A stretch of 39,195 nt of DNA. Source: a virus. Taxonomy: Duplodnaviria; Caudoviricetes. This document shows positions 16,580 to 37,534 of the stretch, piece after piece. Numbering within the stretch: the first letter of the stretch is position 1; every line of letters begins with the position of its first letter. A program made the translations under genes and the position numbers. The stretch is taken from positions 1 to 39,195 of the IMG/VR virus record IMGVR_UViG_3300044820_000043; one strand, 5' to 3'. The notes under the pieces are model-generated. The model saw only the letters and a program-made list of their open reading frames with translations. It had not been told where the DNA came from and made no database searches.

Positions 16580-17245
16580 ATGTCCGCGTGGCAGGACACC
16601 TGGGCGGCGCTGTTCGCGGAAGCGGACGCAGCGAAGGAAGCGGCGAAGACTGCTTTCTTGGCGGGGCTCGTACCTCCGAATCCGCCTGTCCTTCCACTCG
16701 CGAAAGTAGTACCGCTCGCCGACGCAATGACGACGGCGTCGTGGCAAGCGTTGCTTAAGCATATAGGGCCTGTTTCTTCCGATGGCTCGTTAGATATTGG
16801 CATTCAGTGGACGACGGACCCCGTACCCGTACCGCAGCTCGACTTGACGGCCAACACCACCAACAGCCAGCACAGGGGTATTGGTCCAGCTACTATCGAC
16901 GCGTTCGGCATTGTCACGTTGGCGCCCTACCACACGAGCGAATTGACGATGCTCGGAGGCGGTACGATCAACGGGGTCAAGCTGTACACTTCGGCAGGGA
17001 CCGCTTTAGTGCGCGGCGACGACCACAGGCTTGTTGTCTTTGGCGCGACTCACACCGCGCCCGTGGATGTCATCAACGGGGCTTCGGTGGGCGCTGGCAA
17101 TATAGCGTTTTGCCTGCCCTATAGTGCAGGCACCGACGCCAACGCGCGCGAGAATTTCCGCTTCAAAGCAAGTCCTGCGGTGTTCAATCTCTACATCGAC
17201 CCCACTGTGAGCGTGTACCTAGACGGAGGAAAGCCGAGCCCATGA
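16580..17245 (+). CDS. Hypothetical protein in the fibre region
   Basis: ATG 3 nt after the fibre stop; its stop overlaps the next start (ATGA); beta-rich composition. Confidence 0.6.
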   Translation: MSAWQDTWAALFAEADAAKEAAKTAFLAGLVPPNPPVLPLAKVVPLADAMTTASWQALLKHIGPVSSDGSLDIGIQWTTDPVPVPQLDLTANTTNSQHRGIGPATIDAFGIVTLAPYHTSELTMLGGGTINGVKLYTSAGTALVRGDDHRLVVFGATHTAPVDVINGASVGAGNIAFCLPYSAGTDANARENFRFKASPAVFNLYIDPTVSVYLDGGKPSP

Positions 17246-26883: not shown

Positions 26884-28932
26884 TCATGCTGCCTTCCGCA
26901 CTTTCTGGTCGCCCAAGGCTCGCCGGGCAGCCTTGCGCTTCCGCATTTCGGCGAGGTAGACGAGCTGGCCTTTCTTGTCGTACGGCACCAGCGCGCCCCA
27001 ATTGGAGCCCGTCTGGCCTTCGGATAGCATCGGCACGTCAAACTTGACTGACGACATCGCTTTGCCGAGGACTCGGTGAGCTTCGGCCATGTCCGCCTTG
27101 GGTACGGACAGCACGAATTCATCATGGACTGTCATCAAAAGGCGCCACGAGGGGTGCTTCCGCCGAATGGCCGCCCACAGGTTCAGAATCGTCCGCTTCG
27201 TGTTGTCGGCCGCGCTGCCTTGGATCAGCAGGTTGAGCATCTTGTATTCGAACGTGCGCATGGTGCGCTTGCCGTTCGAATCCACCACCATACGCGGCTC
27301 TTCGACGTAGTATTCGCGGCCGCCCCACGTGCGGATCGGCAGCTTCGCATCGCAGCGCTTGCGAAGCTTGCGGCTCAGTTCGATCAAGCCAGGAACGGCT
27401 TTCTTCACGGCCTCGGCAATCGCGACCAAATAGGGGCTTGGGATACCGTATTCGTCCGACAGTCGCGCGATACCAGGACGGCCCATGCCGTAGATGACGG
27501 CGAACACGATCCGCTTGACGACGTCACGGGAGACTTCGGCCCCCATCAGCTCGTTAACCCGTCGGTTCACGAGCGCGTGGACGTCGAGCCAGTTATCGTC
27601 GAGGTACTTCGCCAGCAGCAACCCGTCCGCGTAGTGCGCGAAAATGCGCAATTCTTGCTGGCTGTAGTCGCGGTCGATCAGAACATGACCGGGGAGCGCG
27701 ACGATGTACCCGCGCACGTTCGGCAGATCCGGCCAACCAAGCGCGATCCACCACTCGGGAGCGGCTTTGTTGGCGCCCTCGGCCGCCGTGCCGAACAGCA
27801 ACGGCGCTCGCTTCGGGAGGTTCTGGAAATTCGGCGTGCTCGATAAGCGGCCAGTACGCGCCCCATTGTCGTCGGTCCTGGTCGTGTTCCAGATGGTGTA
27901 AATGAAGCCATTCGACCGCGCGGCAACGGCAAGCCACGGCTCCATGAACGTACGCAACGACACGCTCAAGCGCGAGCGGTACTTCAAAACCGTAAGCGTT
28001 TGCGGGCACGTCACAGCCCCCGCGAGCGAGTCTTTGTTGCTGGCGTCCTTGCCCGTCTTGGTTTTCTTGAGCTTGGCCGCATCGACAAGCCCAGCTTTGC
28101 GCAGCCACTTAAGCAACGTGGCCGAACTACCCCATTTCGTTCCTACAGGGGCGCCGGTCTTCGCCTCTAGCCAAGCATCGGCTTTCGCGAAGGCAGCCTT
28201 GTACAAAGCGACGTCGGCACGCAAACGCTTGAGATCGACCGGCACGCCGCCCGACTCCATGGCGTGGATGGGGGAAAGCAGGAACCGCTCGACGTCGTAC
28301 GCGGCAAGCATCTTTCGCAAGGCTAGCTCGGACAAAAGCTTCCGTGCGAGCCCGCGCGCACGCAGGACGTCGCCGCAAGCGTAGCGCTTCACCAGTGGGA
28401 CCGGGGCGTAGGCGGTGTACGCACCAGCATAGGCCGTCGATGCGCCCACCTTGCGTTTGTTCTTGGGCTCCGTGGCAGTGAGCTTCACACCGGGAATCGG
28501 TTGATGCTTGACCAACCAAGCTATGACCGCGTCGCGCTCCGTCGGCGCCTCGCCTAAGAGTTCAGCCGCGCACGGCTTGAGCTTGAACGTCTTGCGCCTG
28601 GGGTCTTGCAGAAACAACATCAGGTTCGTGTCGTGGACACGTTCCGATGCAAGCTCGGGCAACTTCATGTGCTCGATGGCGACGTCATACGCATCGAACT
28701 TGGTGTTGTGGCAGCAGACGGGGCGCTTGGACTTCCACACCGCACGTAGCGCGTGGCGCGCTTCGGAAAAAGTATGCGTGTTGCCGCCGTTCGGATGGGC
28801 GAATGCGTAGTATTTCGGCTTCTGGCCTGGCCACAAGATCGAAACTCCTACGGGCTTCGGCGGACCTTCGGGCCTTGGCCGAATGGGCAACGTCTCGAAA
28901 TCGACGTACACCCAGCTACTACACGACACCAT
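26884..28932 (-). CDS. polA: DNA polymerase family A with 3'-5' exonuclease domain
   Basis: Exonuclease motifs VDFET, HNTKFD and YACGD; TGRLSS.PNFQNLP; motif A DYSQQELR; motif B R..VK..VFAVIYG; motif C VHDE. Start placed at ATG 28932 after an AGGGGG RBS. Confidence 0.95.
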   Translation of the reverse strand: MVSCSSWVYVDFETLPIRPRPEGPPKPVGVSILWPGQKPKYYAFAHPNGGNTHTFSEARHALRAVWKSKRPVCCHNTKFDAYDVAIEHMKLPELASERVHDTNLMLFLQDPRRKTFKLKPCAAELLGEAPTERDAVIAWLVKHQPIPGVKLTATEPKNKRKVGASTAYAGAYTAYAPVPLVKRYACGDVLRARGLARKLLSELALRKMLAAYDVERFLLSPIHAMESGGVPVDLKRLRADVALYKAAFAKADAWLEAKTGAPVGTKWGSSATLLKWLRKAGLVDAAKLKKTKTGKDASNKDSLAGAVTCPQTLTVLKYRSRLSVSLRTFMEPWLAVAARSNGFIYTIWNTTRTDDNGARTGRLSSTPNFQNLPKRAPLLFGTAAEGANKAAPEWWIALGWPDLPNVRGYIVALPGHVLIDRDYSQQELRIFAHYADGLLLAKYLDDNWLDVHALVNRRVNELMGAEVSRDVVKRIVFAVIYGMGRPGIARLSDEYGIPSPYLVAIAEAVKKAVPGLIELSRKLRKRCDAKLPIRTWGGREYYVEEPRMVVDSNGKRTMRTFEYKMLNLLIQGSAADNTKRTILNLWAAIRRKHPSWRLLMTVHDEFVLSVPKADMAEAHRVLGKAMSSVKFDVPMLSEGQTGSNWGALVPYDKKGQLVYLAEMRKRKAARRALGDQKVRKAA

Positions 28933-28942
28933 CGCATGCCCC

Positions 28943-29164
28943 CTATTTAGACGTGAGACCGCGCAGCCGCTTCTTTGGCACTCGAAGCTTCTGCGTGTAG
29001 TTCGCCACGATAACGCCCGCATCCGTCGTCAAGGGGTGTTCTCGCCGCTCTTTGAAGATCCTGCGCAAGAGGTGTTCGTACTCACTCTTCTGCGCCTGTA
29101 GCCGAGCCACAAGCGCCGTCCGCTGTTCGGCCTCGATCTTCTTTGACAGTGTCAGCGCTTCCAT
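28943..29164 (-). CDS. Hypothetical coiled-coil protein
   Basis: 73 aa, helical, tightly packed in the operon. Confidence 0.55.
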   Translation of the reverse strand: MEALTLSKKIEAEQRTALVARLQAQKSEYEHLLRRIFKERREHPLTTDAGVIVANYTQKLRVPKKRLRGLTSK

Positions 29165-29394: not shown

Positions 29395-29576
29395 TACGTG
29401 AGGGCGCTTCCAGGGCTTCCAACCCCCAACTACAAGACCAACACGAAGGATGGCGATAGTTGTCCGGCATGAAGAAGCGCTTGCACCGTTTCCCTCTCCG
29501 TCGGGTGCGATGGCGGTAGGATGGTGTGGAACGGGCGAGAGCGGCGCCCATCCACGGGCCGAGGAAGCCCCCGTGA
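29395..29576 (-). ncRNA. Candidate structured intergenic RNA
   Basis: Several stems plus interleaved pairings GGGCTTCC/GGAAGCCC and GCGCTTC/GAAGCGC in a ~200-nt gene-free gap. Confidence 0.4.
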
Positions 29577-30470
29577 CTAGAACTTGTCCTTACCTCGTTT
29601 CTTGCCGCCCGACGAGGCCTTGCCCGACGTCTCCTCTTCGCTCGTGTCGTCGCCCTTGTCTTTGCCGCCCTTCTCAGCCTTCGCTGACATCTTCGGGTAG
29701 GGGCGCACCAAGACGGGCATCGCCGCCATGCCGCGCCTACGCAGCACGGCGAGCTGCGCTTTCGTCACAAGCCCGAGGTTCTCGAACGTCACCATGGGGT
29801 AGTCGTCGTCATTCAGCGCGACTTTGATCAGCGTATGGACACCGTAGAGCGGCCGTTGCTCGGTGTCAGCGATGCAGCGAAGGTACTTCGCGAAATTGTT
29901 CAACGACGTAGGTGGTACGCTCAGAGTGACCACATCGTTCTTTTCCAGTCTCGCCAGATCTGCGGCGTTGTCCGTGTAGGGGATGAAAACGCCGTTGGGC
30001 TGTACAGCGCCGTCCTCGACGAACGCCACGCGGATCGAATCGCGGCAGGCCTTGCCGTTGCCTTGGCGAGCGGTGCCGAATTCGTTCCACTTGCACTTGT
30101 CGCACGCTTCAGCTTGGCGCTCACTGCACTCGGCATGGGGGAAGATCCCGCTAAGCTTCGGCCCGAAACCAAAACAGACGGGCGTGGCGCCTTCCTGCTT
30201 GGGATTGTAGGCCTCGGCGTAGTACGCCTTCGAGGCAGTGTGCGCGACGACCACGCACGCGAGCTGCCCCGACGCAATGACGGTGTCGCCGATGGTGAGC
30301 TTGCCGCCCTTGATGCTCGCGACCAGGTTCCCGCCGAGATCAGCGACAGTTTCCTTCGCCTTCTGCGCCTCTTCGGCCAACTCCAGTTCCCAAGCTTCCA
30401 GCGCTACGTTTGGATCGCGCGGGGCTAGGGCTCTTGTCGCTTCCGGTGCCAAATCCTTCTTCTTACTCAT
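29577..30470 (-). CDS. Putative single-stranded DNA-binding/recombination protein
   Basis: GAAAGGA RBS; 'YY...Y.P....P.CF', 'C..C.WNEFG.A..G.GKACR' and 'L.VPPTSL.NF..Y' motifs; charged tail; located in the replication module. Confidence 0.65.
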   Translation of the reverse strand: MSKKKDLAPEATRALAPRDPNVALEAWELELAEEAQKAKETVADLGGNLVASIKGGKLTIGDTVIASGQLACVVVAHTASKAYYAEAYNPKQEGATPVCFGFGPKLSGIFPHAECSERQAEACDKCKWNEFGTARQGNGKACRDSIRVAFVEDGAVQPNGVFIPYTDNAADLARLEKNDVVTLSVPPTSLNNFAKYLRCIADTEQRPLYGVHTLIKVALNDDDYPMVTFENLGLVTKAQLAVLRRRGMAAMPVLVRPYPKMSAKAEKGGKDKGDDTSEEETSGKASSGGKKRGKDKF

Positions 30471-30510
30471 GGGATCGTTCCTTTCAGTGGTCGTGGGGAT
30501 GCTATGCGAA

Positions 30511-30580
30511 CAAAAACGCTCGCGAGGCCCGTAACCGCACACGACGGAGGGAGGCTGTGCGTAGCCTCGCGAGCACAAAA
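30511..30580 (-). ncRNA. Candidate antisense sRNA / terminator-like hairpin with an anti-Shine-Dalgarno loop
   Basis: 11-bp stem GCTCGCGAGGC/GCCTCGCGAGC (30574-30564 with 30528-30518), inner stem CGCACA/TGTGCG, loop GCCTCCCTCCGTCG, followed by GTTTTTG. Confidence 0.5.
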
Positions 30581-30586
30581 TTTCAG

Positions 30587-30687
30587 TGGGGAGGGTTGGA
30601 TTCGAACCAACAATTCCGAGACTAGGTCTTAAGCCCTTACCTCTCGGACCCGCTTTCGCGGCGGCTTTCGCTTTCGCCTACCTCGCC
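30587..30687 (-). ncRNA. tRNA-like RNA (non-canonical, no standard anticodon arm)
   Basis: Acceptor GGCGAGG/CCTCCCC plus discriminator A (one C:C mismatch), T8-A9, D-like stem GGC/GCC, canonical T arm GTTGG-TTCGAAT-CCAAC, and two intervening hairpins. Confidence 0.72.
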
Positions 30688-31779: not shown

Positions 31780-31820
31780 GTTCTAAACTAGTCTTGTATC
31801 ACTTGTCAAATATTATTTTA
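31780..31820 (-). promoter_or_regulatory. Putative sigma70-type promoter upstream of tmk
   Basis: AAAATAATAT-TTGACA (31809-31804)-N18-TAGAAC in an AT-rich island; the -10 is imperfect. Confidence 0.5.
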
Positions 31821-33734: not shown

Positions 33735-34169
33735 TCATGACGGCACCAATCCAAACGCCTTGAGACTTTGCCGAACGTCAACGGATCTGCACGCGTGAAG
33801 ACGTGCAAGCCTGGACACTCCCAATTCTTCTAGCACTTCTACCATGCGCGGAACGTCCTCGGGATCAAGCTCGCCCTCTTGGATGATCGCAAACCATCGC
33901 TTGCGCGAATCTTCCGGGATAGCGCGAACGTCCTCTTGCGTGCTTTTCCAGTCCTCTACCACGTACAAGATCGCGCGCAAAAGATCTTTCGTGGTACCGT
34001 ACTCTAGCTTATGGCGTGGTACTGCATCGCCTATCGTTTCGGCCATTTCGCGCACGAGCGTGCGGATAGATGCCTCCGAGTCCATGCAATCCGCTACCTC
34101 TTGTTTCGCGCACTCAAGCTCAATTCGCAATTGCGCGATCTCTTCTGCTTTCGTCGGTTTCCGTGCCAT
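33735..34169 (-). CDS. Hypothetical helical/coiled-coil protein
   Basis: Strong GGAGG RBS; 144 aa, charged and helical. Confidence 0.7.
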   Translation of the reverse strand: MARKPTKAEEIAQLRIELECAKQEVADCMDSEASIRTLVREMAETIGDAVPRHKLEYGTTKDLLRAILYVVEDWKSTQEDVRAIPEDSRKRWFAIIQEGELDPEDVPRMVEVLEELGVSRLARLHACRSVDVRQSLKAFGLVPS

Positions 34170-34197
34170 GTTGCCTCCGTCGTTTCAGGTGGGAAAA

Positions 34198-34259
34198 TCC
34201 GTCGCTCTAGACTGCCTGCTAGCCTCCTTTGACCTAGCAGGCAGGGTTACAACGACGGA
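34198..34259 (-). promoter_or_regulatory. Long intergenic hairpin (terminator, processing site or riboregulator)
   Basis: 11-bp inner stem CTGCCTGCTAG/CTAGCAGGCAG (34212-34222 / 34234-34244), outer stem TCCGTCG/CGACGGA, followed by TTTT on the - strand. Confidence 0.6.
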
Positions 34260-34553
34260 CTAGATCCCAACGTAGGGACCATGCAGGACGCGCGCGTCCT
34301 CATGCAGTCCGAAGAGCGTTCCGGGCACTTTGACGACGATCAAGCCCACATACTTCCGACACTCCAGGCATACGCCGTCGTCTTCGTAGCTTCGATCATC
34401 CTTGCCGATGCGCCGCCCAGTGCCGGCCACGTGGAAGGGTGCCGCCTTGCACACTGGACAGAAACCGCTGAATTCCGCGTAACTGTCCGTCGTGCCGTGG
34501 CAGATCCTAACGTCGTCGGCTGTCTTCAAGCTCATGTGCTTTGTGGCGTGCAT
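34260..34553 (-). CDS. Small zinc-ribbon protein
   Basis: CPVC ... CLEC cysteine pairs; 97 aa. Confidence 0.65.
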   Translation of the reverse strand: MHATKHMSLKTADDVRICHGTTDSYAEFSGFCPVCKAAPFHVAGTGRRIGKDDRSYEDDGVCLECRKYVGLIVVKVPGTLFGLHEDARVLHGPYVGI

Positions 34554-34558
34554 GGCGC

Positions 34559-35713
34559 TTACTTCTTTCCAAGCGCTAGGCCTGCCTCGCGTTCCAGATC
34601 TAGGCGTGTTTCCGCGTCAACGTCGTCTTGTCGAGCTACCCACGAAATTGCATTTGAGAGGCGCCATTGTGTGTTGCCAGGTGGCAGGGCTTCCACGTCC
34701 GCCGTATTGAACGCGGACGCGATACGTTCGGCAACGCCTTTGCCCAGTCGCTTCCGCAGATCTTCAGCCGAGCGCTTGGCTTCAATAGGCGTGTTAGCAG
34801 CCGTCCGCATGATGTCCGCCGTACGTTCGATATGGATGGGCGAGAGAAGCGCGCGCGCGGCATCCCGCATCGCCAGGGTTAACGCGCGCGAATCGGCCGC
34901 AATCGTGCTCGCGCTGTACTGGACTTCATAGTCAGTCAAGCGGCCGCCTAAGTGCACCTGCCTCAGAGCTTGCTCCAGTGTCGCGCCATTCAGGCACCAC
35001 ACTCGCATACAGAACGGTGCCAAGCTTTGCGCGCCTTTGCCGTAGTCGCTGTTACTCCAGGCGAGGCCTAGCACCACAAATTCACCGGGCGCGATCTCCA
35101 GGACTTTGGGCAAAAGGATGCGCACGGATGCGCGTACGTCCAAGACAACGGCATCCGTCACGAGCGCGCCGACTTTCTGCGCCTCGCCTAGTAGAGCGTC
35201 AAGCGCCGGACGGCAATCAATGCGCCGAAAACGGTCCGAAAGTACCGCGCGCGCTTGACCCTTGCAAGCACGTACCAGCATACGTTCAGATTGCGGAAGG
35301 TGCTTCGCGTGTTCTTTCAGAGTGTGCGCTAGCAACGGTTGGGCCCATTCCTTTTCGGGATGGGTTTGCAGATGCCGTGCATAGGACCCGTGGATCTCCA
35401 TTTTCTCGGCAAGCTGGGTCAGTGCATTGTCATGGATCCGCATCGGATCTTCGCCGCTCAACTGCATCCGCGCTACGCCGTCCGCACCTACCGCGAAATC
35501 AAGCGCTTTTCCACGCACAATGAAATCGGTAGGGACTTCACTTAGGATTCGTTGTATCGGCAGCTCGGCGCGCGTCTTAGCCGTCGCCACGTACCGATCA
35601 AGGATTCGGCGCGCGGCTTCTTGATCGTGCGGCTGCAAAGTGCCGGCATCGACGCGCGCATGGTGGGGATCGAGGATCTGTCGGGACTCTACGATCTGGG
35701 CTGGGTTGACCAT
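34559..35713 (-). CDS. DUF932-family protein
   Basis: 'RAVLSDRFR.ID', 'G...SNSD.G.GA......R.WCLNG' and 'T.W.L.NAIS..A' motifs; GGAG RBS. Confidence 0.8.
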   Translation of the reverse strand: MVNPAQIVESRQILDPHHARVDAGTLQPHDQEAARRILDRYVATAKTRAELPIQRILSEVPTDFIVRGKALDFAVGADGVARMQLSGEDPMRIHDNALTQLAEKMEIHGSYARHLQTHPEKEWAQPLLAHTLKEHAKHLPQSERMLVRACKGQARAVLSDRFRRIDCRPALDALLGEAQKVGALVTDAVVLDVRASVRILLPKVLEIAPGEFVVLGLAWSNSDYGKGAQSLAPFCMRVWCLNGATLEQALRQVHLGGRLTDYEVQYSASTIAADSRALTLAMRDAARALLSPIHIERTADIMRTAANTPIEAKRSAEDLRKRLGKGVAERIASAFNTADVEALPPGNTQWRLSNAISWVARQDDVDAETRLDLEREAGLALGKK

Positions 35714-35930
35714 TGGGATCTCCGTCGTGTGTTGGTTGGTTGAACTGCTACCCTATGGCACAAGCTACGATGTAAGCGGCTACGTATTAAGTAAGGCTCT
35801 AGCGTGCGCACCTTGCACGCTGGCTCTAGTATTTTGATCCAGATCTGACTCTGTACCCATTCGCGGATGGATGCGGATTCGACTAACGGCAAAGCCTCAT
35901 CTAGCAGGGCTTCCGCTTGTGAAGGTTCCA

Positions 35931-36494: not shown

Positions 36495-36535
36495 AGAGTA
36501 AACCCATAACTGACACGTGACAAGATATATTTTTA
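36495..36535 (-). promoter_or_regulatory. Sigma70-type promoter with UP element and overlapping operator-like site
   Basis: AAAAATATATC-TTGTCA (36523-36518)-N17-TACTCT (36500-36495), then GAAAGG RBS and the radC ATG. TGTCACGTGTCA overlaps the -35. Confidence 0.72.
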
Positions 36536-36552: not shown

Positions 36553-36852
36553 CTAGGTCTCGGGTTTGCGGCCGCTTCCGTGGCATGCGGGACATATGAC
36601 TACCAGTTTGCGCCAATTCGGACCGACTCTTTCGACACTCCGCGAGCCTCTGCAAGTGGCGCACTGTCCGCGCTTTTCCTTGGTTGCCGTTAGCACTTTC
36701 CAGGCATCTTGTAGTCGAGCCCATCCGGCTGCATCGGCGCTTCCCGTATCAGGATGCAAGCGACGGCAAACCGCACGGTAGGCAGTGCGGATCTCTGTCT
36801 CACTGGACAGATCCGTACACCCTAGGAAAGCCAAGGCTTGCACTTCGGTCAT
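36553..36852 (-). CDS. Mini DnaJ-like protein (J-domain plus single Zn finger)
   Basis: LG......EIR.AYR.....LHPD J-domain followed by CATCRGSR...CPACHGSG. Confidence 0.88.
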   Translation of the reverse strand: MTEVQALAFLGCTDLSSETEIRTAYRAVCRRLHPDTGSADAAGWARLQDAWKVLTATKEKRGQCATCRGSRSVERVGPNWRKLVVICPACHGSGRKPET

Positions 36853-37343
36853 TTCTTGCGCCTCTTGGCTTTCTTTCCAGGCTCTACCAAATGCGCGGCC
36901 GCGCGGCCTAGTCGCTGAAGCCCTTGCACTTCGATTTGCCGCGCCCGTTCGCGCGTGAGGTTGAGGAGTAGCCCGACAGTTTCAAGCGTAGCGCCGTCGC
37001 GCTCGGCAACGTCCAGCGCGCACGACTCATCAGGCGGCACGTCGCCGGGGCTGCGGTGTGGATGGTGGATGCGCACGTCGCCCGTGGCGCAGACTTCGAG
37101 GTAGAGGTTCTGGCTGCATCCGACGTACGGGCACGGCCGGGGCACGTCGGCGCACTCCGCCCGACATCCTGGCCGCCAGTGCTCCGTGGGGTACTTCGTC
37201 GCCGCGACCTTGTCCTTACGCCGTCGCGGGATGCGAATCAGCACGGGCTTGCGGGGCTCGCCTGTGCCGAGGGTACAAAGGCACGGAGCCTGTAGGTATT
37301 GCCGCGAACCGTCGCAGTAGCAAGGACCTACGGGGCGTCGCAT
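36849..37343 (-). CDS. Cys-rich protein with sigma70 region 4-like HTH
   Basis: RP..RAEC...PRPCPYVGC..NLYL, SCALDVAE and TLETVG..LNLTRERARQIE..GL.RL motifs. Confidence 0.82.
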   Translation of the reverse strand: MRRPVGPCYCDGSRQYLQAPCLCTLGTGEPRKPVLIRIPRRRKDKVAATKYPTEHWRPGCRAECADVPRPCPYVGCSQNLYLEVCATGDVRIHHPHRSPGDVPPDESCALDVAERDGATLETVGLLLNLTRERARQIEVQGLQRLGRAAAHLVEPGKKAKRRKK

Positions 37344-37534
37344 GCGAACGACTCCAGTGCAAACTGTGCCGTCGCGAGGTTGGCTTCCGCTTCGGCCAGC
37401 CCCTTGAGCGCGTCTTCGAGCGCTCGTTGCGCCTTCGCCACGCGCGTCTGTTGGAAACTGCGGGTGACTTGCGCCCGCGCAACGGCATTCTGTTTCTCGC
37501 ACAGGTCCCGAATTGTCTTCATGGGGTCACGCAT
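37328..37534 (-). CDS. Hypothetical coiled-coil protein
   Basis: Heptad-like Ala/Leu pattern; packed between neighbouring genes. Confidence 0.5.
   Translation of the reverse strand: MRDPMKTIRDLCEKQNAVARAQVTRSFQQTRVAKAQRALEDALKGLAEAEANLATAQFALESFACDAP

Follow-up and report, generated by a model that had tools for sequence, protein, structure and literature searches.

The loop of a hairpin in the replication operon of an uncultured myovirus was found to be exactly complementary to the Shine-Dalgarno (SD) regions of two putative early genes of the same phage, and the hairpin follows closely behind a tRNA-like element that has no anticodon loop. Judged from the sequence, the loop is a case of real and statistically unusual antisense complementarity, for which the comparative support is modest. 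The complementarity, the accessibility of the loop, an excess over controls that retain the anti-SD motif and covariation with one site in one relative were shown by sequence comparison and computation; that the hairpin is a trans-acting antisense element directed against the leaders of the genes starting at 35713 and 34169 is a reading to which we give an even chance.

The window, by which we mean the whole 39,195-nt stretch of DNA analysed, represents most of the phage genome and has a G+C content of 60%. A peat metagenome is the one sequencing run that contains the phage. Structural genes occupy the plus strand, and the minus strand encodes a primase, small likely early genes, thymidylate kinase, PolA, an exonuclease and a helicase. 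No match to an integrase, a repressor or an antirepressor was found among the 50 open reading frames of the window and 18 further proteins of its relative G001, both records being incomplete. The features that frame the hairpin are:

36495 to 36523, minus strand: putative early promoter upstream of a RadC-like gene, conserved in G001 with a 5/6 -10 element
31804 to 31809, minus strand: TTGACA hexamer, putative promoter upstream of the thymidylate kinase gene, with a poor -10 and in the same place in the window, G001 and the contig L001
30695 to 31165, minus strand: 156-aa gene directly upstream of the tRNA-like element (PHROG 13900), syntenic in G001, L001 and many distant loci
29577 to 30470, minus strand: 297-aa gene, likely a gp32-type single-stranded-DNA-binding protein (SSB) on the basis of its fold

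The initial annotation had placed promoters at 36.5 and 31.8 kb. Their -35 hexamers proved to be conserved in relatives, although a promoter scan lists neither. The early promoter also holds a tandem TGTCA repeat (36523-36510, minus strand) which is conserved in G001, and a protein with a sigma-70 region 4 domain, encoded at 36849-37502, might read this repeat. The product of the 297-aa gene is likely a gp32-type SSB according to its structural model (pLDDT 89), for which the viral fold matches are named as ssDNA-binding (E 1e-4 to 7e-4); the comparison with the PDB gave a weak, non-significant match (RB69 gp32 core, E 0.046), and a Pfam search gave none.

The tRNA-like element and the trailer hairpin together occupy the gap between the 156-aa gene and the SSB-like gene. 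Folding confirmed the arrangement described in the initial annotation, that is, a tRNA-like element followed within about 12 nt by a hairpin and then by a U-tract on the minus strand:

30587 to 30687, minus strand: tRNA-like element with acceptor stem, D arm and T arm, found by folding and by a T-arm and acceptor-stem scan
30517 to 30575, minus strand: trailer hairpin found by folding, beginning 12 nt after the tRNA-like element
30538 to 30550, minus strand: antisense seed, comprising loop and four inner-stem bases
30509 to 30516, minus strand: U-rich tract, a candidate 3' end by intrinsic termination, absent in G001
29403 to 29480, minus strand: a further, degenerate tRNA-like element past the SSB-like gene, with which elements in G001 and L001 are syntenic

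The acceptor stem of the tRNA-like element is 7 bp long with one mismatch (6/7 pairs) and the D arm has 3 bp. The position of the anticodon arm (30661-30650) is taken by a 4-bp stub with a GAAA tetraloop, so that a 7-nt anticodon loop is missing; the variable arm is long (30648-30617), the T arm is canonical with a 5-bp stem (30611-30595), and the 3' end carries a discriminator A at 30587 and no CCA. Such a CCA-less 3' end is compatible with cleavage by tRNase Z. Neither ARAGORN (0 genes) nor Rfam calls a tRNA at 30687-30587, and a functional tRNA or tmRNA was rejected on this ground and on the missing anticodon arm with its 7-nt loop. The T-arm and acceptor-stem scan found 30687-30587 to be the only such element in the window. 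An antisense role for the tRNA-like body was likewise rejected, as its loops have no complement among the leaders (best -3.9 kcal/mol; -4.2 for the body in G001). Among known phage RNAs, species 1 and 2 of T4 and the stable tRNA-like RNAs of T5 keep the acceptor and T arms and have no decoding arm; they end in CCA and sit in tRNA clusters, and we know of no antisense trailer for them.

Similar elements recur beside SSB-like genes: L038 11151-11257, L001 3162-3257, L054 9847-9943, L097 10702-10770, L184 about 1195-1310, and window 29480-29403, the last of which has acceptor and T-like stems, a degenerate T loop and a fold z score of -0.56. The anticodon arm is shrunken or missing in this set and the variable arm is long in most members; those tested were missed by ARAGORN, and L054 scores as a tRNA in Rfam. 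Across 113 loci, tRNA-like elements were enriched next to the SSB-like gene, with 4 in 94,046 nt against 7 in 2,901,088 nt, two of the four being close kin. This enrichment fits a general role of tRNA-like elements as processing marks in the operon. The trailers behind the elements of L054 (best -1.9 kcal/mol), L094 (none) and L097 (-4.4 kcal/mol) have no strong leader complement, and L054 thus presents the tRNA-like-plus-trailer layout with the target lacking. Odd tRNA calls were also seen, namely a tRNA-Cys(ACA)-like gene whose anticodon arm is expanded (L094 6554-6635), a call with a 4-base anticodon (L022 10763-10836) and a cluster of tRNA-like elements missed by ARAGORN (L074 5373-5659).

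The trailer hairpin has a folding energy of -31.7 kcal/mol (z -3.26). In its stem, 30574-30564 forms 11 Watson-Crick pairs with 30528-30518, bordered by U.G pairs, and the upper part has an internal loop, an inner stem of 5-6 bp and an open 14-nt loop at 30555-30542, which contains two overlapping anti-SD motifs (a doubled CCUCC). The last loop base within the 12-nt match described below is 30542; bases 30541-30538 belong to the inner stem and cost about 4 kcal/mol to open. The computed accessibility of the loop is equal in the unprocessed transcript and in the cut trailer. The loop is not simply the reverse of a gene start on the plus strand.

Both main matches named in the initial annotation were verified: 30549-30538 is the exact 12-nt complement of 35731-35720, and 30550-30541 is the exact 10-nt complement of 34183-34174. 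The targets are:

35720 to 35731, minus strand: target 1, at the SD of the DUF932-like gene (384 aa, start at 35713), with 12 bp and a net energy of -15.2 kcal/mol, the first of 53 leaders
34174 to 34183, minus strand: target 2, at the SD of a gene of 144 aa (start at 34169), with 10 bp and a net energy of -12.5 kcal/mol, the second of 53 leaders

The label DUF932, given to the first of these genes in the initial annotation, holds indirectly: the protein matches PHROG 1362 and PF06067 appears in 1 of the 120 homologues listed, although Pfam gives no match on the protein itself. The 8-nt matches at 29496-29503 and 17222-17229, proposed there as further sites, exist and look like background. They were rejected as targets because the leader of the gene starting at 17242 scores -6.0 kcal/mol, the null mean, and 29496-29503 falls within no called leader. 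A further 8-nt match at the start of the long PolA open reading frame at 29022 (-9.4 kcal/mol) was dropped, as the gene caller sets the start at 28932.

Any loop with an anti-SD motif matches leaders, and the null models therefore kept the anti-SD half of the loop fixed. In the exact-match null, which covered 47 leaders, the 3' tail was redrawn; a match of at least 12 nt together with one of at least 10 nt was reached by 0 of 20,000 random tails and by 20 of 20,000 shuffled tails. Among the 6,058 anti-SD-containing 20-mers in the genome, the trailer locus alone has both matches, and one other locus reaches 12 nt, with a single leader. With accessibility included, leaders 35713 and 34169 rank 1 and 2 in both the 47- and the 53-leader set, the third leader reaching -7.0 kcal/mol. 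For 177 null hairpins which kept the anti-SD motif, the mean score was -6.0 +/- 1.5 kcal/mol for the best leader and -3.9 +/- 1.9 kcal/mol for the next, and none of the 177 reached either observed value. The two main matches thus stand up to nulls that preserve the anti-SD motif. By hybridisation energy alone, the two main sites rank just 11 and 15 of 2,590 genome windows, ten windows beating target 1; the signal therefore depends on restricting the search to accessible leaders. The predicted trans duplexes have energies of -21.7 and -18.1 kcal/mol.

The matches centre on a 9-nt word. In the window and in G001 alike, the phage's own word occurs three times exactly in intergenic DNA, twice in sense and once in antisense orientation, and neither phage carries the other's word in its intergenic DNA. 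Both sense copies of the window word overlap SD sequences. Shared leader words are common in this genome, and a different 8-nt ribosome-site word is shared by the window leaders 2799, 7987 and 20105 (plus strand) and 25533 and 30478 (minus strand).

Relatives were sought by alignment and by pattern scans of viral, metagenome and genome collections. Among the matches listed, G001 alone was a syntenic close relative in which both regions are present (its SSB-like protein is 61% identical); further close relatives were two short contigs, L001 and L002. Scans with single proteins found no relatives, the relatives found through the DUF932-like protein were not syntenic, and G002 and G003 are without the 156-aa gene. 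Among cultured phages, the SSB-like protein found matches of only 25-31%, and the DNA of the element had no meaningful counterpart. Two pattern matches, L115 and L186, were rejected as chance.

In G001 the gap between the 156-aa gene and the SSB-like gene contains a hairpin of 21 bp (z -8.99), whose loop has a 6-nt core in common with the window loop. The two loops were compared by structure, MAFFT having misaligned both hairpins. The early region of G001 is rearranged: the RadC-like gene is missing, as are residues 1-274 encoded by the DUF932-like gene, and independent contigs agree on this. Behind the early promoter, at L038 6325-7210 of G001, there is instead an unrelated 201-aa open reading frame fused to the 3' remnant of the DUF932-like gene. 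Target 1 is therefore not directly comparable between the phages, whereas target 2 is, because it follows the conserved early hairpin described below.

At the site behind the early hairpin, the G001 loop pairs at 9 of 10 positions, with three two-sided changes, one G.U pair and one broken end pair. Alternatives did as well in 3 of 81 letter sets at the same four positions and in 33 of 17,010 at any four positions. Own duplexes were more stable than crossed ones in 4/4 comparisons (-19.9 vs -11.3, -23.7 vs -12.7, -12.7 vs -11.5 and -17.3 vs -12.6 kcal/mol), one of which differs by just about 1 kcal/mol. The best of the 48 leaders for the G001 loop is that of the first gene behind the early promoter (-8.8 kcal/mol, with a start set by hand; next -7.4 and -7.3). 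The covarying site itself scores -6.7 kcal/mol, rank 247 of 2,257 genome-wide, and a plain sequence alignment shifts its register by 3 nt. It lies 46 nt upstream of the called start codon and is thus not a ribosome-binding site, so that translation blocking is a possibility in the window only. The covariation rests on two genomes, both found in sequencing run X1, which may be the sample they came from, shows no differences at the elements and confirms the rearranged early region of G001. The initial annotation had proposed covariation of seed and target in relatives as a check; loop and site do change together in G001, the one informative relative, although the pairing there is weaker.

The tRNA-processing step that the initial annotation attached to the hairpin did not find support in conservation. 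The G001 hairpin has neither a tRNA-like element upstream nor a U-tract; its tRNA-like element, which is likewise anticodon-less, is found about 1.2 kb downstream, past the SSB-like gene. L001 and L002 have no hairpin in the gap, with a downstream tRNA-like element or none (L002 ends inside the SSB-like gene). The strongest pairing, notably, occurs in the phage that has both the putative 5' processing handle and the 3' U-tract.

A second structure in the early region bears on target 2:

34195 to 34262, minus strand: early-region hairpin (z -6.25), the 5' arm of which (34259-34251) is a second antisense copy of the word

Its inner stem is paired at 11/11 positions in the window and in G001, with four two-sided changes. 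The 5' arm and the distal site, target 2, are paired at 9/9 positions in both phages with two two-sided changes. In both phages the 5' arm can thus pair with its own 3' arm or with target 2, and since it is a perfect 9-nt complement of target 2 in each, the register is fixed independently of the trailer loop. The alternative fold is less stable by 5.8 kcal/mol in the window and by 2.4 kcal/mol in G001. The hairpin is a candidate for a processing-dependent switch. Antitermination by the hairpin arm was rejected on geometry, as the distal site lies behind the U-run. The early-region hairpin has no Rfam match. Over window 34262-34174 (minus strand) and L038 7213-7305, a GGAGG loop is conserved with four compensated pairs, and in G001 the 5' arm is, in addition, perfectly complementary to the first early leader over 11 nt.

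The most serious rival places the function of the trailer hairpin in cis, in the leader of the SSB-like gene. The hairpin would then form a pseudoknot serving as an autoregulatory operator of the T4 gene 32 type or as a mask of the ribosome site, and the early matches would be secondary or a by-product; we consider this unlikely, and yet a rival to be taken seriously. The partner strand in the window would be:

30490 to 30495, minus strand: possible cis partner of the loop in the SSB-like leader (6 bp)

The strong-hairpin filter was passed by 29 of 96 distinct SSB-like leaders. In five related loci (L042, L049, L051, L052 and L078) a 6-nt loop pairs at 5-6 of 6 positions with a strand 8-10 nt downstream, three different loop sequences being represented, and L041 and L071 show 6-7 bp. 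In G001 the loop can pair at 10/11 positions, three of them G.U, with the ribosome-binding site of that phage's SSB-like gene (P 0.007), and the window helix has 6 bp (P 0.064). The downstream gene is SSB-like by fold, and the T4 precedent, as passages of PMC535899 present it, points the same way. Against this stand the weakness of the window helix (-7.2 kcal/mol), which takes two stem bases, beside trans duplexes of the energies given above; the two exact early-leader matches and the phage-specific word, which a cis role leaves unexplained; and the distance of the pseudoknot clade, which has about 27-29% SSB identity and unrelated sequence. In G001 a cis role fits no worse than a trans role, while in the window the cis helix is far weaker than the trans duplexes. 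The cis and trans functions are compatible with each other. In origin the hairpin was most likely a leader structure of the SSB-like gene, a role that it may retain. Were the cis reading true, the analysis would still have exposed a covarying pseudoknot before the SSB-like gene, with no Rfam match in the four loci scanned (L042, L052, L041 and L049). The pseudoknots lie at L042 7605-7690, L049 1018-1104, L051 9880-9973, L052 1772-1851, L078 9933-10012, L041 9908-9988 and L071 9851-9930, and several of these loci have a CTAG/ACTA-rich tract following.

The remaining alternatives dispense with antisense pairing to the two leaders. A GC-rich stem followed by a U-tract would suit a hairpin with no function beyond termination, RNase III cleavage or 5'-end stabilisation of the SSB-like message after tRNA-like processing, the complementarity being chance or the relic of a duplicated leader. 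The 21-bp stem of G001, which would resemble an RNase III substrate, and the enrichment of tRNA-like elements beside the SSB-like gene agree with such a role, which we nevertheless regard as quite improbable given the anti-SD nulls, the covariation in G001 and a conserved 6-nt loop core that a terminator does not need. The 9-nt word might instead be a DNA or RNA binding site of a phage protein, evolving in concert within each genome, with the loop copy an inverted site. The word is phage-specific, intergenic and found in both orientations, its first G001 copy lies directly behind the early promoter in an operator-like position, and the phage encodes a sigma-70 region 4 domain protein; however, both antisense copies lie in RNA hairpins, the early hairpin stem covaries, both window sense copies overlap SD sequences, and the G001 loop differs from the word by a change that G.U pairing tolerates and matches in a frame other than that of the exact copies. 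A protein site is therefore very improbable in our estimate. The doubled CCUCC could also mark a C-rich anti-SD sRNA acting broadly on host messages, and passages of PMC8383071 describe a class of sRNAs whose C-rich loops bind ribosome-binding sites. The G001 loop, however, has lost the anti-SD motif and kept the core that matches phage sites, which makes broad action on the host highly improbable.

If the hairpin acts in trans on the early leaders, the replication operon would be transcribed from the TTGACA site at 31809-31804 or by read-through. The exposed loop would start pairing with the phage-specific word of 9-10 nt and extend into the inner stem. This pairing would mask the two SD sites of genes 35713 and 34169, and early-gene translation would be damped once the replication genes are expressed. 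Cuts by RNase P and an RNase Z-type enzyme around the tRNA mimic, which has no CCA, with partial termination at the U-tract, may yield an RNA of about 75 nt (30586-30510). Given antisense targeting, we rate release of this RNA by tRNA-processing cuts and partial termination as the weaker part of the model, its chance falling somewhat short of even. Such processing can be dispensed with, since the uncut transcript already exposes the loop and G001 has retained the loop with no tRNA mimic before it. The initial annotation had read the whole as an antisense sRNA, matured by tRNA processing, that shuts off early genes; of this, the two main early leaders are supported by the nulls and by covariation, while the 8-nt secondary targets are unsupported, the processing step is not backed by conservation and the temporal switch stays a proposal. 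A cis pseudoknot was not among the readings that the initial annotation offered.

Parallels exist in several known systems. In C4 of P1/P7, as passages of PMC5320573 describe it, short loop seeds pair with the phage's own leader, partly cover the ribosome-binding site and set phage specificity, and the RNA is matured by RNase P. Parts of PMC5499578 present CI of P4 and C4 as RNase P substrates without a T loop, and RNase P substrates are also treated in sections of PMC11143913. The likeness, computed only, is that the trailer seed pairs phage-specifically with its own leaders over ribosome-binding sites. In C4, however, the substrate is itself the antisense RNA and has two seed loops, whereas here there is one seed, in a separate trailer 3.6-5.2 kb from its targets, and the tRNA mimic, which is without a target, keeps a canonical T arm; the trailer also lies in the replication operon and not in an immunity operon controlling an antirepressor. 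The Rfam C4 model gave no match at E <= 1 in the window, G001 or L001. The trailer would work like C4 and is not a member of that family, since there is no model match, the seed lies outside the tRNA-like body and there is no immunity operon.

The TMERs of murine gammaherpesvirus 68 consist, in the account given in passages of PMC4863581, of a tRNA-like leader that is not aminoacylated and a regulatory hairpin, separated by tRNase Z. The window shares with them a tRNA-like element directly 5' of a hairpin. TMERs, in contrast, are eukaryotic Pol III transcripts matured by Dicer and Argonaute, the window element lies in a bacterial polycistronic operon with a putative cut, and its tRNA-like and hairpin layout is not kept in G001. 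The T4 gene 32 operator, in the relevant parts of PMC535899, consists of a stem-loop, possibly forming a pseudoknot, that precedes the ribosome-binding site of the SSB gene. The hairpins of the distant relatives match this operator well, but the T4 operator acts in cis via protein, needs a U/A-rich unstructured tract and has no trans complementarity, and the cis helix of the window is marginal. Passages of PMC8383071 describe 3'ETS-leuZ as a functional RNA from the trailer of a tRNA precursor, and OxyS and RNAIII as RNAs whose C-rich loops bind G-rich ribosome-binding sites; 3'ETS-leuZ differs in coming from real tRNAs and in sponging sRNAs rather than mRNAs, and OxyS and RNAIII in being host-encoded and independently transcribed.

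Where a 2025 review (PMC12197685) describes antisense RNAs that control genes of the phage itself, most of the cases have to do with lysogeny and several of the RNAs are encoded in cis. A literature search that covered few subscription journals returned no description of the element or of a phage trailer sRNA behind a tRNA mimic. Phage T7 offers a precedent in which a strand freed by RNase III cleavage pairs with an upstream ribosome-binding site. Early-gene shut-off in phages with no known repressor is poorly mapped, and if the antisense reading is true, a trans-acting loop in the replication operon that reads a phage-specific word would connect the replication genes back to the early genes by a compact RNA feedback. 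The anticodon-less tRNA mimics that recur beside the SSB-like gene and are missed by ARAGORN would then gain a role. A more far-reaching proposal is a bacterial counterpart of the herpesvirus tRNA-miRNA cassette, in which a likely lytic phage uses a tRNA mimic purely as the processing handle for a trailer sRNA, this sRNA and a second antisense arm in the early transcript read a genome-specific word, and co-occurring sister phages shut off only their own early genes; this we hold to be speculative and unlikely as a whole.

Two further structures were noted in the loci with SSB pseudoknots. L041 5819-5889 gave a match resembling a Hammerhead type II ribozyme, which at 35 bits (E 0.0018) falls slightly short of the gathering score of 37, and L042 169-315 is an AT-rich inverted repeat of about 150 nt, which matches miRNA-precursor models by shape only.
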